The translations under genes and the position numbers were made by a program. Shown here piece by piece: positions 55,265 to 59,836 of a stretch of 64,000 nt of DNA. Under the pieces are notes generated by a model. It was not told where the DNA came from. It saw nothing but the letters and a program-made list of their open reading frames with translations, and did no database searches. Numbering within the stretch: the first letter of the stretch is position 1; each line of letters starts with the position of its first letter. The DNA comes from an uncultured Holophaga sp. Its GTDB lineage: Bacteria > Acidobacteriota > Holophagae > Holophagales > Holophagaceae. Location of the stretch: positions 2,464,001-2,528,000 of the forward strand of contig OY761614.1 in assembly GCA_963664825.1 (NCBI GenBank), written 5' to 3'.

Positions 55265-55354
55265 GGAGAGTTGTCCGAGTGGCTGAAGGAGCACGATTGG
55301 AAATCGTGTAACGGGGTGACCCGTTCAAGAGTTCGAATCTCTTACTCTCCGCCA
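55265..55354 (+). tRNA. tRNA-Ser (GGA); probable integration site
   Basis: GGAGAGTTGTCCGAGTGGCTGAAGGAGCACGATTGGAAATCGTG...GTTCGAATC...CTCTCCGCCA; long variable arm. Confidence 0.97.
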
Positions 55355-55364
55355 GACTTACGAA

Positions 55365-55396
55365 GAAAAAGCCCCCTCGAATCAGGGGGCTTTTTC
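55365..55396. terminator. Bidirectional intrinsic terminator between tRNA-Ser and alpA
   Basis: GAAAAAGCCCCCT-CGAATC-AGGGGGCTTTTTC, perfect 13-bp stem with A/T tails. Confidence 0.85.
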
Positions 55397-55402
55397 CTGC
55401 AC

Positions 55403-55424
55403 GTCCTACAAGTGTCCTACAAGT
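55403..55424. repeat. Tandem 11-bp direct repeat, candidate integrase arm-type sites
   Basis: GTCCTACAAGT GTCCTACAAGT, about 50 bp from the tRNA 3' end. Confidence 0.6.
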
Positions 55425-55469
55425 CAGCAAGGGGCTGCATTGAGCGCAGTCCCTCAGATATGTGTCCCC

Positions 55470-55736
55470 CTACCGATCCGAGTCTTGTGTCACTTCCTGC
55501 TTGCGAGCGGCTTCCAGGTTGGCAACCAGGGCCTTGATCTCCTCCACGGTCTTCCCGGCGATTCGGGCCGCGTTGATCGCCTGGACCTCATGCTCTGGCC
55601 AGCCAACGGAACGGCTCCCGATCAGGACAGGGTGCGTGAAGAGACCTTTGGCGATGTCCTCTTGGTGGGACGTTCGGGAACGCCCGCGCCGTCGCAACAC
55701 TTCGGGAAGACGCAGGATGATGTAATCGTCTGACAT
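55470..55736 (-). CDS. alpA: AlpA family phage regulator / recombination directionality factor
   Basis: ILRLPEV....GRSR......IAKGLF..PV.IG.RSVGWPE.EV; GGAGG RBS. Confidence 0.9.
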   Translation of the reverse strand: MSDDYIILRLPEVLRRRGRSRTSHQEDIAKGLFTHPVLIGSRSVGWPEHEVQAINAARIAGKTVEEIKALVANLEAARKQEVTQDSDR

Positions 55737-55874
55737 GATTTCTGCCTCCTTTGTTGTGGAATGGGCCTGTGTAGCCCATGCGCTACAAGCGAGAAGGTAA
55801 GGGGAAGCAGGCGCGGGGGGCAACTCCGTTCCGACCCACTCTGGAATCCAAGAGATGAGGCATCACCCAGCCAC

Positions 55875-55901
55875 AAAAAAAGCCCCTCAAGAAGAGGGGC
55901 C
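55875..55901 (-). terminator. Intrinsic terminator of the candidate sRNA and toxin transcript
   Basis: Minus strand GCCCCTC-TTCTT-GAGGGGC followed by T7. Confidence 0.88.
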
Positions 55902-55988
55902 TAACTAGCACTGTGAAGGATTGCGTTCTCCGATCACAGTGGCCTCCCTGCGGAGGACTTAAGCCCGATGCCGAAGCAGAGCGGAGAC
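55875..55988 (-). ncRNA. Candidate ~114-nt pseudoknotted small RNA downstream of the PemK-like toxin
   Basis: Own promoter (55995-56023) and terminator; interleaved stems UCUCCG/CGGAGA and CACUGUGA/UCACAGUG, a cUUCGg hairpin and a CCUCC-GCAG-GGAGG hairpin. Confidence 0.7.
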
Positions 55989-55994
55989 AATTCA

Positions 55995-56023
55995 ACTGTA
56001 GGTTCCTAACGCGCACCAGTCAA
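55995..56023 (-). promoter_or_regulatory. Sigma70-type promoter embedded in the 3' end of the toxin gene
   Basis: -35 TTGACT (56018-56023), exactly 17 bp spacer containing the toxin TAG, -10 TACAGT (55995-56000); G at 55988 lies 7 nt downstream. Confidence 0.65.
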
Positions 56024-56428
56024 GGGTTGAACAAGGATTCCCATCGCGCATGCAACACAACTTCGAATGTTTGCAAGCTCTTCCTTTGAAAAAATAAACG
56101 TGTGGTAGGTCCGACTACCGGTGCGGTCCTTCGAACACGGCAGATCCATCCGATCATATGACAGGGTGTAGACCATGTCTCCCTTAAGCCAACAGGTTGG
56201 AGAGGCGAATCGAGGGAGTGGAGGGTCGATTGTCAGCAATCGGTGATAGGGCTTCACCTCATAGGGCACGGTTGTGCTGAGCGGAACAACCGTACACAAC
56301 TTAACCCCGTCCCTGCGCCTTGGTGAGATGACTACACACAGTCTCGGTTTCACCATCTCTGGCTCAACGAAACCTCGGAAATCGCAGATGACCACTGTTC
56401 CAGGCTTTGGATCAAATGGAAGTGACAT
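56006..56428 (-). CDS. PemK/MazF-fold toxin (YifN-like subfamily), probable endoribonuclease
   Basis: P.PGTVVICDF.GF.EPEMVK.R.CVVISPR....LCTVVPLSTT, W.K.DM.YT.S.DR; visibly lower GC than flanks. Confidence 0.88.
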   Translation of the reverse strand: MSLPFDPKPGTVVICDFRGFVEPEMVKPRLCVVISPRRRDGVKLCTVVPLSTTVPYEVKPYHRLLTIDPPLPRFASPTCWLKGDMVYTLSYDRMDLPCSKDRTGSRTYHTFIFSKEELANIRSCVACAMGILVQPLTGAR

Positions 56429-56603
56429 CTGGAAAGTCTACAACTAATCGATCATCTACCCAACCCGCTTCCATGACAATCTCCACGTCTCCAGGGTGTT
56501 CCGTGCGGTTTGTGGATACCTGCTCACCCTCATAGAGCACGAAGAGCTTCCCGCCTTTGGGAAGACTTCTCCGAAGTTTCTTCAGTTGTTCCTTGATTCC
56601 CAT
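56412..56603 (-). CDS. Hypothetical protein (63 aa) overlapping the toxin start
   Basis: AGAGGA RBS; basic N-terminus, acidic C-terminus; no AbrB/MazE or RHH signature. Confidence 0.65.
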   Translation of the reverse strand: MGIKEQLKKLRRSLPKGGKLFVLYEGEQVSTNRTEHPGDVEIVMEAGWVDDRLVVDFPDVTSI

Positions 56604-56647
56604 GGATTCCTCTTTTCGTGGCTATCGATGCGCCCATCCAAGCTTCC

Positions 56648-57481
56648 CTATGCCCGGACAGGAGCACCTGGCTTGAACCCAGCTCCTGTCTGGCGGTTGG
56701 GAAGGTTGACGGTCATTTCGGGAAGGGCTTCCAGCATCGCCAGAACCTCATCTTCCTGGTCCTCGGCTTTCGTAGTGGAAGCCTGCTCTCGTTCGTCGGC
56801 GTTCAACTTGATCCGGGACATGCGGGCCTTGACCTTCTCTTCATGCTGCTGAAGCATCAGGCCCAGGGCGATTCGTGCCGTGGCATCGCGGTTTCCAGCC
56901 AGTTCGTTAGCGGCGATCTCACCAGTTCGGAGCGCGACATCCCCCCGGTAAAAGGCCTCCTCGGCTTCCACAAGCGGCCCGATAGGCAGCGAGTCCAGGA
57001 AGAACGGAAGTTTTTTCAGGACCAGTGAGGCACAGTAAACCCGGCCCCATTGGCGATTCAGCGCGGCCTCCGTGGCCCAAAGGTTAGCCACTCCGAGAGG
57101 CATCGCGGCAAGCTCGGCTCGGAGGTTCGCCCGTACCGTGGCCTCCTGGGATTCCCAAAGGGCGCGGCCCGAGGTCGTGGTGTCTGGGGGGGCGGGCAGC
57201 ACACTCTGTTTACTCAGCACATTGATAGGGGAGGTCCAGATAGGCCGGGTTTCCTGAAATTCGGCATAGCGCGTCTTGAGTTCAGCCAGCAGGGCAGGCA
57301 CACGGGTTCCCCTGCGGATCTGGGCGATCTGTTCGGCCTTCCACTGTCCAGAGCGGGAAGCATCGTTCTGGGCAGCGTCTACGGCCTTCTGTTCGGCCGC
57401 TCTGGCGGCTTCGATCTCACCAGTGAGATTTGCCAGGGCGGTGCTGGCAGCTTGCAGTCCACTAAGCTCTGTAATGACCAT
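56648..57481 (-). CDS. Ala-rich alpha-helical phage hypothetical protein (277 aa)
   Basis: GGAG RBS before ATG 57481 (alternative start 57565 coupled to the Mor-like gene); predicted coiled-coil character. Confidence 0.75.
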   Translation of the reverse strand: MVITELSGLQAASTALANLTGEIEAARAAEQKAVDAAQNDASRSGQWKAEQIAQIRRGTRVPALLAELKTRYAEFQETRPIWTSPINVLSKQSVLPAPPDTTTSGRALWESQEATVRANLRAELAAMPLGVANLWATEAALNRQWGRVYCASLVLKKLPFFLDSLPIGPLVEAEEAFYRGDVALRTGEIAANELAGNRDATARIALGLMLQQHEEKVKARMSRIKLNADEREQASTTKAEDQEDEVLAMLEALPEMTVNLPNRQTGAGFKPGAPVRA

Positions 57482-57561
57482 TGCGTTCTCCGTGCGGGGA
57501 AGTCCCGTATAACCAAGGTCGCCCATCCGAATGCCTGATGTTGCCAAGAACTGTCCAAACG

Positions 57562-57861
57562 TCATGCAGCGGTAGACACGCGGCGGCGCTTGAGTTCCCG
57601 AGAATAGAGCCGGTCAACCTTCCAACGTGGAATGTCCATGGCGCAAGCAATGGCAAGGGCAGACTCACCCTTGCATCGGCGCTCATAGACCACGCGGGCG
57701 AGTAAATCCGTCTCGATGCGATGGGGGAAGTTCACCCGCTGGCCAAGGAAGCGCCGTATCAGGGCAAGGTAAACCCTTTGGCCTAGGTCATCCCCAAGCA
57801 TCCCAACCAAGAGCGGCAAGGCGTCCTCAGCCCGTGGGGTGTCAGGATCGCGGGGCTTCAT
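57562..57861 (-). CDS. Mor/C-family transcription activator
   Basis: L.RRFLGQRVNFP (Mor FGG..Y.P motif) and C-terminal HTH G.S..AIA...DIPRWKV.RL. Confidence 0.65.
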   Translation of the reverse strand: MKPRDPDTPRAEDALPLLVGMLGDDLGQRVYLALIRRFLGQRVNFPHRIETDLLARVVYERRCKGESALAIACAMDIPRWKVDRLYSRELKRRRVSTAA

Positions 57862-57865
57862 GGTG

Positions 57866-59098
57866 TCAGATCCCCAGGATCTTGATGGTTCCGGCGAAGC
57901 ACGGATTCAGCGGGAACTCGGAATGGACTAGGTAGCCAAGGGCATCGGGCAAATGGTCCAGGCCTAGGCGCTTGTCCGGCTCCATCGTGTCCTCTCGATA
58001 GGTGAGCCCTTCCAGGCAGTGAATCAGCTTCTCGCAGCGCTTGGCGATGAAGAGGCGGTGCTGCTCTTTCGCATTCAGGAAGAGGGCGTTCACTTCATTG
58101 ATGCGATCCGAGACGCTGGGAGCCTTGGGCGGGGCAATGACGCGGAATCCAGCCTGCCGAAGGATGGCAAAGTCTGTCTGCCCAACGTCTGCCGAGGTCT
58201 TCCGGGCGTTCCCGCTGGGGTCGGGATACACGTTGATGGATCGGCCCGGATAGCGCTTCTTGAGTTCATCGGCCATGCGCTGGGTGTTCGAGTTCGAGAG
58301 GCTGATTTCGTCCAGGATGTGGAGCTGATCCCCGGCCTTCACTCCCACCACTGCCGATAGGGGCGTGATGTTGAAGTCCATGCCCACCAGGAGCGCCCCG
58401 CCCGTGTCTTTCAGGTCTTCTCGGATATGAATGGCCCGGTCGAAGTTCTGATAGACCAGGCCGGTCATGCTCTCAAAGCTGGCCTCGTATTCCTGTTTGA
58501 AGCTCCTGGGGTCCAGTTCGGCGCGGGCGGCTTCGATCTCTTCCGGGGGCACCCGTCCGCCCTGGAGCGTGGTGAACTGGAAGGCTTCCCAGCCGTCCAT
58601 GATGAAAGCCCGCGTCCAGAGGGTGTGGAAATGGTTGAAGCCCTTCGGCGTCCCGATGAACAAGGCCCATCCTTGCCGGTCACTGAGGGCGGGCCTCAGC
58701 ACCTCGAACCACGCATCGGGGCTCATGTCTGCGAATTCGTCCAGGACAAGGCCATCCAAGCCCACGCCACGCAAGGAATCGTAATTGTCGGCACCTCGCA
58801 GGGCGATGACGCTTCCGTTCCGCAGTTCGATGGATAGGTCTGTCTCGTTGATCTTCCCGGCGTTGTTCTTCGGGATGAGCCCCTTGAGGATTTTCCAGCC
58901 GATTTGAGCGGCTTGGCGGTAGGAGGGGGCCACGAACCAAACGACGCGGCCTGGAGCCTCCAGGGCGGTCTTGAGGGCCGTTGCAATGGCAAGGTGAGTC
59001 TTCCCGAATCTGCGACCGGCGCACACAACCCGGAACCGGGCGGGGGATCGGAAGACCTGGGCTTGGGCTTCGGATAATCGGATGGGGTCTGAATTCAT
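57866..59098 (-). CDS. Phage terminase large subunit (Terminase_6 type)
   Basis: GRRFGKT Walker A, VAPSYRQA, LRG..LD.LVLDEFA, GTPKG.NHF, GMDFN, DPSG, DHLPDALGY; no frameshift seen. Confidence 0.95.
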   Translation of the reverse strand: MNSDPIRLSEAQAQVFRSPARFRVVCAGRRFGKTHLAIATALKTALEAPGRVVWFVAPSYRQAAQIGWKILKGLIPKNNAGKINETDLSIELRNGSVIALRGADNYDSLRGVGLDGLVLDEFADMSPDAWFEVLRPALSDRQGWALFIGTPKGFNHFHTLWTRAFIMDGWEAFQFTTLQGGRVPPEEIEAARAELDPRSFKQEYEASFESMTGLVYQNFDRAIHIREDLKDTGGALLVGMDFNITPLSAVVGVKAGDQLHILDEISLSNSNTQRMADELKKRYPGRSINVYPDPSGNARKTSADVGQTDFAILRQAGFRVIAPPKAPSVSDRINEVNALFLNAKEQHRLFIAKRCEKLIHCLEGLTYREDTMEPDKRLGLDHLPDALGYLVHSEFPLNPCFAGTIKILGI

Positions 59099-59117
59099 CG
59101 TGTCCTCTTGACGGAAG

Positions 59118-59315
59118 TTGAGACAGGAGCGAACATTGGTTGAGAATCTGACGGCTTGTAAGTGCCCTGTTTGGATTCAATTGAGAATGATGAATAGCGG
59201 ATTTTCGATAACAATGATTACGTAACCCTGTTCATCATCGAAAACCCGCGTCAATGCTCACTTTCATCATTGGTTGAGATTGAGAATCAACGGATTCGTG
59301 TTATCTTCGTTGAGC
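59118..59315. repeat. AT-rich intergenic region with TTGAGA(AT) repeats between terS and terL
   Basis: TTGAGA at 59118, 59140, 59181, 59274, 59280; CATTGGTTGAGA at 59134 and 59268. Confidence 0.55.
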
Positions 59316-59404
59316 CATTCCTAAAAACTGGCTGAAATCTGAGTGATTCGGACTCATGGGAAGTAAGCCAGAGGGAGGTTCATGGTTCCCCCTGGCTCAC
59401 TCAT

Positions 59405-59836
59405 TCAGGAAGCCTTGTTTCCGAGTGTCGGCGTGGGTTCCGCCGTCACATCGATACAGGGCACCTCGATAATCAGAGGCGCGGGAAGGCTGTTCTCAAG
59501 CTCGATATCGACCTTGTCCTTCCACCCGGCCCGGTTCTTCAGGAAGAACTGGATCGCCTGCACATTGCCACTCACAGCGGCTTCGAAGAGGCTGTTGACC
59601 ACTTCCGCAATGCCCTGAGCCGTTCCCCGCTTGATTGCTTCCATCAATTCTATGTTTGATTTCTTACGATTGATGAGGGTTTGAACGCAAATACCAAGAG
59701 CGTCACATATTTGCTGTTGAGTAAGGCCCCTTGATGCCAGTGTCTCCACTTTCTTGATGTCGATTGGGATCATGGGGTATCCACGCTTCCCCCCTTTGGG
59801 TTTCGGTGGAGCCTTCTTCCTGGGTTTCGGCGTCAT
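59405..59836 (-). CDS. Terminase small subunit-like HTH protein
   Basis: VETLASRGLTQQQICDALGI...TL (HTH), EAIKRG, L.EAA..GNVQA..FFLKNR.GW.DK; upstream of terL. Confidence 0.8.
   Translation of the reverse strand: MTPKPRKKAPPKPKGGKRGYPMIPIDIKKVETLASRGLTQQQICDALGICVQTLINRKKSNIELMEAIKRGTAQGIAEVVNSLFEAAVSGNVQAIQFFLKNRAGWKDKVDIELENSLPAPLIIEVPCIDVTAEPTPTLGNKAS

Follow-up and report, generated by a model that had tools for sequence, protein, structure and literature searches.

The window, by which we mean the whole 64,000-nt stretch of DNA analysed, carries on its minus strand the gene of a 140-aa protein with a PemK/MazF fold, and directly downstream of it a predicted small RNA gene with its own promoter and terminator (Table 1). 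A preliminary description had placed a PemK toxin paired with a pseudoknotted RNA antitoxin here. All of its coordinates proved correct, and its assignment of the protein was borne out by the match to PF02452. The same ORF also matches phrog_15698. An AlphaFold2 model of the protein (pLDDT 86.5) has MazF as its best structural match (Z 14.1, rmsd 2.4, 114 residues aligned), followed by CptN (Z 10.1, rmsd 4.2) and ToxN/AbiQ (Z 5.8-6.7). Residues E24, R29 and S51 are invariant in an alignment of 31 homologues, and E24, R29 and T52 line up with E. coli MazF, where R29 and T52 presumably occupy the catalytic positions. The Arg position was found in 129 of 144 homologues, the other 15 being unmatched by the search pattern, and Ser-Thr in 114 of 144. 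Members of this YifN-type subfamily are about 135-140 aa, longer than type II MazEF/PemIK toxins, and share the motifs PEMVK and WxKxD. The family comprises 781 protein clusters (E<=1e-10) and at least 560 loci in species-representative genomes; the nearest named homologue is from Mesoterricola, and PemK proteins of any kind occur in 55 of 133 genomes of the host family. None of the PADLOC-DB 2.0 profiles (library of 2023) matched the 31 homologues at E<=0.01, and a viral scan with the single protein gave no match.

Table 1. Features at the toxin-RNA locus of the window and the related units of the E. coli yifN clade (L331, L332).
Feature	Position	Strand	Remarks
tRNA-Ser	55265-55354	+	adjoins element end
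End of prophage or satellite-like element (terminase subunits, AlpA)	55265..59836	-	Terminase_6N/6C and Phage_AlpA matches
Small RNA of ~114 nt including terminator, predicted; candidate RNA antitoxin	55875..55988	-	model R1
Intrinsic terminator, 9-bp stem and U7	55875..55902	-	stem 55902-55880
P3 helix (P2 of the preliminary description)	55909..55941	-	apical GA-NNN-CAA loop at 55928-55921
P2 hairpin, bulged U55957, variable loop	55942..55958	-	95.1% paired
Single-stranded linker CUUAA, conserved, before G55958	55959..55963	-	
P1 hairpin: 4 bp, 3x1 internal loop (CUC/U), 3 bp, UUCG loop	55964..55985	-	
Sigma-70-type RNA promoter TTGACT-17-TACAGT	55995..56023	-	overlaps last toxin codons
YifN-subfamily PemK/MazF-fold endoribonuclease, 140 aa, putative toxin	56006..56428	-	PF02452, E 2.3e-9
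63-aa ORF overlapping toxin start by 17 nt	56412..56603	-	not conserved in system
Weak promoter-like site TTGTCA-17-GATGAT	56451..56479	-	just 5′ of toxin start, within 63-aa ORF
305-aa ORF between terminase and toxin	56648-57565	-	no Pfam, NCBIfam or PHROG match
99-aa ORF between terminase and toxin	57562-57861	-	no Pfam, NCBIfam or PHROG match
yifN-clade RNA unit	L332:1402-1482	-	E. coli K-12, between yifN and ppiC
yifN-clade RNA unit	L331:3016-3087	+	plasmid homologue

A prophage or satellite-like element, in which no capsid or portal gene was recognised, has the pair at its end; no att repeat or duplication was found in the genome. Beyond the window (G000:C1, offset 64900-75900), the element is bounded by ORFs that resemble IS transposases, a cassette-like run of genes and an integron integrase, labels that were given by eye from the sequence starts. 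Among 138 proteins scanned from the flanks of toxin loci (144 picked), 8 were defence-like and 16 phage or mobile, counts that stand without a control set.

The RNA sequence of about 114 nt, from its predicted start at G55988, is as first described. A covariance model of the RNA (R1) matches the window at 55902-55997 with 81.4 bits, the locus being a seed member of the model, and finds a single copy in the genome. We confirmed both the sigma-70-type promoter, one of three promoter-like sites against 0.4 expected, and the terminator. These signals recur elsewhere: a promoter stands 5′ of the RNA at 63 of 139 homologous loci compared to 14 of 1089 control positions, and a terminator-like hairpin stands 3′ of 91 of 138 homologous RNAs compared to 26 of 796 controls. 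By a second promoter rule, a consensus promoter precedes 77 of 139 RNAs and only 5 of 138 toxin starts; because consensus promoters are this rare before homologous toxins, the weak site upstream of the window gene is only a putative toxin promoter. Searches of Rfam 15 returned no family for the window RNA (to E 10) and no match at gathering score for the RNA of 40 homologous loci; the pemK motif (RF02913), the abiF motif (RF03085), and the DUF3800, ToxI and all other families were covered. By blastn, there was only one short weak match among phages and three among plasmids. Two runs labelled RNA-seq, probably DNA, held only short P1-like contigs from other organisms, and expression of the window RNA is predicted from its sequence.

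To the preliminary description, the toxin had no recognisable protein antitoxin, and profile searches and the neighbours of the homologues agreed with this. An ordinary type II system, with the 63-aa product or a small HTH/RHH protein of some homologues as the antitoxin, appears very improbable. The 63-aa ORF does overlap the toxin start by 17 nt, as would suit such a system, but none of the 149 other distinct toxin loci has a homologue of it nearby. It matched nothing in Pfam, NCBIfam or PHROG, an Atlas search returned only unnamed clusters (0.90-0.91, low recognition), and the predicted complex of its product with the toxin dimer scored 0.14, a value that points neither way. Small XRE, Arc or RHH genes lie directly upstream of the toxin in 8 of 150 distinct loci, but the RNA is present in all 8 as well, and no small upstream ORF is conserved across the 150. 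Antisense control of the toxin mRNA, as in type I systems, seems more improbable still: four loci have the RNA converging on the toxin gene from the opposite strand, which would suit such control, but pairing with the cognate mRNA was not in excess. Duplexes with the cognate mRNA had an energy of -45.3 kcal/mol compared to -43.3 kcal/mol for non-cognate ones (60 loci; p = 0.17), and the longest RNA-mRNA complement was 7.6 nt compared to 7.3 nt (139 loci).

To examine the fold, we used a plain MAFFT alignment of 54 hand-picked regions downstream of toxin homologues. The RNA was conserved and covarying, as three nested stems: P1 with a 3x1 internal loop, a UAAG linker, P2, and P3 capped by a GA-NNN-CAA loop. 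Across the 54 sequences, pairing in this fold was 96.4%, compared to 77.0% in shuffles and 32-48% in slid controls. Compensatory changes were found in 18 of 23 pairs, and in 21 of 22 in a model-fitted alignment of 77 matches, although kinship of the sequences inflates these counts, as it does the co-occurrence counts given below. Several pairs show four or five pair types, and the RNAalifold consensus is nearly the same fold. The two helices of P1 are 97.7% and 97.5% paired in the 54 sequences, with compensatory changes in 5 of 7 pairs; its 3x1 internal loop is one that we take to be C-loop-like. In the linker region, A55959 is invariant and A55960 and G55958 are at least 90% conserved. The P2 bulge is U or A across homologues, and the closing pair of this hairpin is G-C in 72 of 77 and A-U in 4 of 77. 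In P3, the helices are 97.1% and 94.4% paired, and 9 of 10 pairs show compensatory changes.

Several elements of the structure first proposed reappear in this fold. The helix 55941-55934/55916-55909 equals P3, and the cUUCGg and CCUCC-GCAG-GGAGG hairpins are both present. The long-range helix (UCUCCG/CGGAGA) that would have crossed P3 to form a pseudoknot did not hold up. Its strands are complementary in the window copy, but across the 54 homologues they are only 63.7% paired, with column pair 24-93 broken in 37 and 23-94 in 26, and both strands pair locally instead, with compensatory changes. In a nested-only model of the window copy its pair probability was 0.0, which weighs little because such a model cannot form this helix alongside the other. 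Mutual-information scans of three alignments gave no long-range covarying pairs. We therefore rejected the pseudoknot, since the crossing helix lacks covariation and the nested stems covary, and with it the proposed likeness to ToxI and CptI; invariant tertiary contacts could remain. In the window copy, the comparative fold has -46.7 kcal/mol, 1.3 kcal/mol higher than an alternative 5′ fold (-48.0 kcal/mol).

Linkage of the RNA to the toxin gene is tight. We took the best 80 of 123 viral loci, the best 80 of at least 560 genomic loci and 5 full-length host-family homologues, and kept 148 distinct toxin loci; duplicates, six RNA-first loci and the locus of the window itself were left out. The RNA adjoins the toxin gene in 139 of the 148, 124 of them at E<=0.01 with model R1, and these RNA-linked loci span about nine phyla. 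It lies directly downstream at E<=0.01 in 118 loci (53 of them seed members) and more weakly in 13, downstream on the opposite strand in 4, and upstream in 4 (5 with L140, recognised by eye); the upstream layout forms one 5-member clade on a quick toxin tree of few columns. Two further loci end at contig edges, and seven lack an assigned RNA. Among these seven, L141 has a 78-bit R1 match beneath a read-through frame, L041 and L042 have an R1 match once filters are off (L045 is nearly identical to L042), L140 has the motif upstream by eye only, and L113 and L126 are doubtful (E about 1). The toxin frames of L113, L126, L138 and L141 run into or through the RNA, possibly as decaying or read-through alleles. 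At L040, two separate RNA copies (1417-1511 and 2437-2531) flank one toxin gene. Since the upstream and opposite-strand copies keep the structure and the terminator, the RNA would be a product that acts in trans.

Whole families of genomes gave a similar picture. Of 133 host-family genomes, 6 have a full-length toxin of the subfamily, and precisely these 6 yielded the RNA, with only about 31 RNA candidates scored per genome; they include chromosomal as well as phage loci. In a second, independent family (around G504), the toxin occurs in 8 of 151 genomes: five copies have an adjacent RNA, one lies at a contig edge, and the two without RNA are both frameshifted, while two further genomes have the RNA without the toxin. 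This asymmetry, in which RNA-less toxins are broken and the RNA persists alone, is as expected of a toxin-antitoxin pair. The proposed system, in which a downstream RNA in single copy, equipped with a promoter and a terminator of its own, is the candidate antitoxin, has strong comparative support; its pseudoknot was the part that failed.

RNA-first scans revealed copies away from any toxin gene. In two sets selected by P1-UAAG, less 3 chance matches, duplicates and short flanks, 43 copies were toxin-linked and 44 toxin-free (n = 87). The GA-NNN-CAA loop was present in 40 of the 43 toxin-linked copies compared to 17 of the 44 toxin-free ones, and a promoter in 33 of 43 compared to 4 of 44. A tRNA on the same strand lay within 450 nt of none of the 43 toxin-linked copies and of 7 of the 44 toxin-free ones. 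Loop-less copies retain more than P1: 17 of 24 keep a P3 base stem of at least 6 bp (0.30 in shuffles), and P2 is kept too. Integrases, terminases, a holin, tail fibres, an RNA ligase and a permuted tmRNA are among the neighbours of toxin-free copies. Several of these copies follow unrelated genes in the moron slots of prophages, and some of the full copies in such slots are probably relics. Loop-less copies were also seen between phage tRNAs (L234, L308, L312, L248, L273, L274, L328), directly after an RNA ligase-like gene in L234 and L308, and near tmRNA in L312/L372.

A scan with P1 alone matched at least 120 viral loci. Of 100 distinct loci among the matches listed, 7 were toxin-linked, 89 toxin-free and 4 too short. 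Among the 89 toxin-free loci so listed, the AAG linker follows P1 in only 17, a tRNA lies within 500 nt in 19, GTT, which is outside the search pattern, precedes P1 in 74, and a -10 box precedes it in 49 (19 of 445 in controls); 49 different sequences follow P1. The invariance of P1 in phages is not evidence by itself, because exact-match patterns select conserved P1. As a general host element P1 found no support: it matched 3 of 401 host-phylum genomes, as many as its reversed pattern did as a control, and each of the three appears fortuitous. With a second pattern, for a P1 variant, there were 49 matches in viral contigs, mostly chance, among which by eye 1 toxin-linked and 2 toxin-free matches were real. 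The many toxin-free copies from both kinds of scan indicate that part of the RNA lives independently of the toxin gene. In viral contigs L333-L452 (e.g. L414, L384, L393, L420, L344, L359, L433), P1 heads modular small-RNA cassettes built of recurring units, some of them tRNA-like, and Rfam gave no match for the cassettes of 38 phage loci. P1 could be either a toxin-binding piece that phages use as a decoy, or a generic 5′ module of phages that is shared by the antitoxin, and the P1-headed toxin-free phage RNAs are candidate decoys.

Other loci place the pair or its RNA beside further genes. In a Vibrio phage (L329:12713-13354; PQ189299.1, Vinavirales), a toxin homologue stands right after a repressor gene and is followed by a weak RNA match (E 0.018), and there are 11 such phage records. 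In L212 and L222, where the toxin is missing and P1 is altered, the RNA converges on a DUF3800 gene with a DUF3800-I RNA of its own, and in L089 an Abi_2 gene lies upstream of the toxin. RNA-partnered systems may cluster.

The toxin-free copies bear on whether the RNA is a cis element or a passenger, that is, a 3′ stabiliser or terminator of the toxin mRNA, or a generic phage 5′ leader (P1) and terminator that share moron slots with the toxin. The variety of sequences headed by P1, its frequent position right after a -10 box among the matches listed and the toxin-free copies behind unrelated moron-slot genes fit this explanation. We nevertheless consider it quite improbable, given that the RNA has its own promoter, that opposite-strand and upstream copies exist, that all six host-family toxins, chromosomal and phage, are linked to it, and that UAAG, P2, P3 and the loop are kept in nearly all toxin-linked copies. 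An explanation that is still unlikely, though less so, is a ribonucleoprotein in which the RNA, instead of being a labile antidote, would serve as cofactor, sensor, guide or dedicated substrate. The elaborate conserved fold would suit it, as would the retention of P2 and the P3 base stem in toxin-free copies, and the occurrence of a terminated RNA on either side and either strand is also the pattern of the unexplained DUF3800, drum and skipping-rope pairs, as far as the accessible part of PMC5737381 describes them. Against it, the protein retains MazF catalytic-site residues, both RNA-less genes of the G504 family are broken while the RNA persists alone, and the 54-sequence alignment has no variable guide or spacer segment and no repeat array.

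We next considered the yifN clade of E. coli, whose homologues are distant from the window toxin (31% identity). Model R1 matches the locus of one plasmid homologue weakly, on the opposite strand (E 0.068), and matches neither that of another plasmid copy nor that of the yifN pseudogene of K-12. Directly downstream of these two lies instead a different, shared unit of promoter, RNA and terminator, about 70 nt long (Table 1), for which there is no Rfam match. We take the E. coli assembly versions to differ here by an offset of +1,977. A 79-nt sRNA, ecr3777(d+), lies downstream of yifN on the same strand, between ppiC and yifO, and was detected by RNA-seq and northern blot; the accessible part of the report never ties it to yifN function (PMC4681348). 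With the offset, the sRNA begins no more than 1 nt from the predicted start of the unit. The yifN region is present in 3983 of 5426 E. coli genomes, and an E. coli-type 16-mer gave 8 matches in viral contigs, none with the toxin nearby. Together, these results show that the promoter-RNA-terminator layout is expressed in one clade; because the E. coli RNA is unlike the window RNA, with no R1 match, they support the architecture and not the window RNA itself.

On comparative grounds, we think it quite likely that the module is a single-copy RNA antitoxin that binds and inhibits a MazF-fold RNase, which is freed when transcription stops. The YifN-subfamily endoribonuclease would be produced at a low level, and the RNA of about 100 nt, separately promoted, self-terminated and single-copy, in excess. 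Folded into its three nested stems, the RNA would bind the toxin, most likely by offering its unpaired conserved parts (the UAAG linker, the GA-NNN-CAA loop and the P1 internal loop) to the RNA-binding grooves of a MazF-type dimer. A stop in host transcription or loss of the element would let the RNA decay and set the RNase free, as in ToxIN. Toxicity, direct binding and this mode of release are what we infer. The role would be anti-phage defence or element stabilisation; defence is plausible, and given the module we would put it slightly ahead of even. It is possible, but rather doubtful, that the wider set forms a widespread anti-phage system, with a MazF RNase held by a three-stem RNA, countered by phage decoys, and with yifN as a divergent member. 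Its decoys would be the toxin-binding P1 alone or P1-UAAG-P2-P3 without the GA-NNN-CAA loop, placed as the 5′ part of small-RNA cassettes and within tRNA clusters of many unrelated phages; such a reading would also suggest a function for some unexplained small RNAs in phage tRNA clusters. If our interpretation is true, a large family of RNA-antitoxin systems is now labelled "type II PemK/MazF" in databases. The family would bring a novel RNA fold and a layout that is inverted and has two promoters, would stand as a living intermediate between MazF neutralised by protein and ToxN/CptN neutralised by RNA, and would give E. coli yifN and its orphan sRNA a testable role.

Known toxin-binding RNA antitoxins come from few families, in which repeats or abiF hairpins lie 5′ of the toxin. 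As far as literature and Rfam show, the pairing of a single-copy downstream RNA with a YifN-type PemK/MazF protein is new. It is undescribed in the literature searched, which does not extend to the supplement of PMC5737381 or to the AbiF/Cas13 paper in Cell (2025), either of which could mention it, and is absent from the accessible parts of 10.64898/2026.09.22.753630, 10.1101/2021.11.03.467129, PMC12475003, PMC11676413, 10.1101/2020.02.04.933952 and PMC7583486.

Among known systems, type II MazEF/PemIK share with the window protein the PF02452 domain, the fold and the E24/R29/T52 positions, including the Arg and Thr/Ser of PemK, but no MazE/AbrB/RHH partner is conserved here at 150 distinct loci. 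Type I systems have an RNA complementary to the toxin mRNA, a trait missing here. AbiF is neutralised through direct RNA binding, and direct binding to a dimeric RNase is what we would expect of the window system. As described in the accessible part of PMC12373285, the AbiF ncRNA (RCd22, abiF motif RF03085) is likewise a non-pseudoknot hairpin RNA, found at prophage positions near lysis genes. In contrast, AbiF belongs to a Cas13-related family and not to the MazF fold, and its RNA is unrelated (no Rfam match). The DUF3800-I to XI, drum and skipping-rope RNAs similarly combine a structured RNA and a 3′ terminator with one protein family on either side or strand, though their proteins and RNAs differ from those of the window, again with no Rfam match (PMC5737381, accessible part). 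Phage PhiTE carries a pseudo-ToxI as a decoy (PMC3475682, accessible part), like here a phage-borne, toxin-free copy of an antitoxin-like RNA; the phage copies described above, which are candidate decoys, are in contrast widespread modules that lack repeats and occur at promoters and within tRNA clusters. E. coli yifN with ecr3777(d+) has the same protein subfamily and the same downstream layout, but its RNA of about 70-79 nt differs in sequence and fold, and K-12 yifN is a pseudogene. The type III systems ToxIN/AbiQ, CptIN and TenpIN, whose toxins have the MazF fold (PMC5086642, accessible part), have in common with the window a MazF/Kid-fold endoribonuclease, an adjacent non-coding RNA, no protein antitoxin and carriage on mobile elements. 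Their antitoxins are arrays of tandem short repeats, whereas the RNA here is a single unit, with one match per locus in homologues except L040. Their order of antitoxin, terminator and toxin in one operon occurs here only in the 5-member clade, the RNA being downstream in the window and in 135 of 148 loci. In place of an H-type pseudoknot, there is a nested three-stem RNA of about 100 nt, usually with its own promoter, and the window protein is structurally nearer type II MazF than CptN or ToxN/AbiQ. Together, these comparisons suggest that the module most likely works like a type III system, yet is no member of ToxIN, CptIN or TenpIN.
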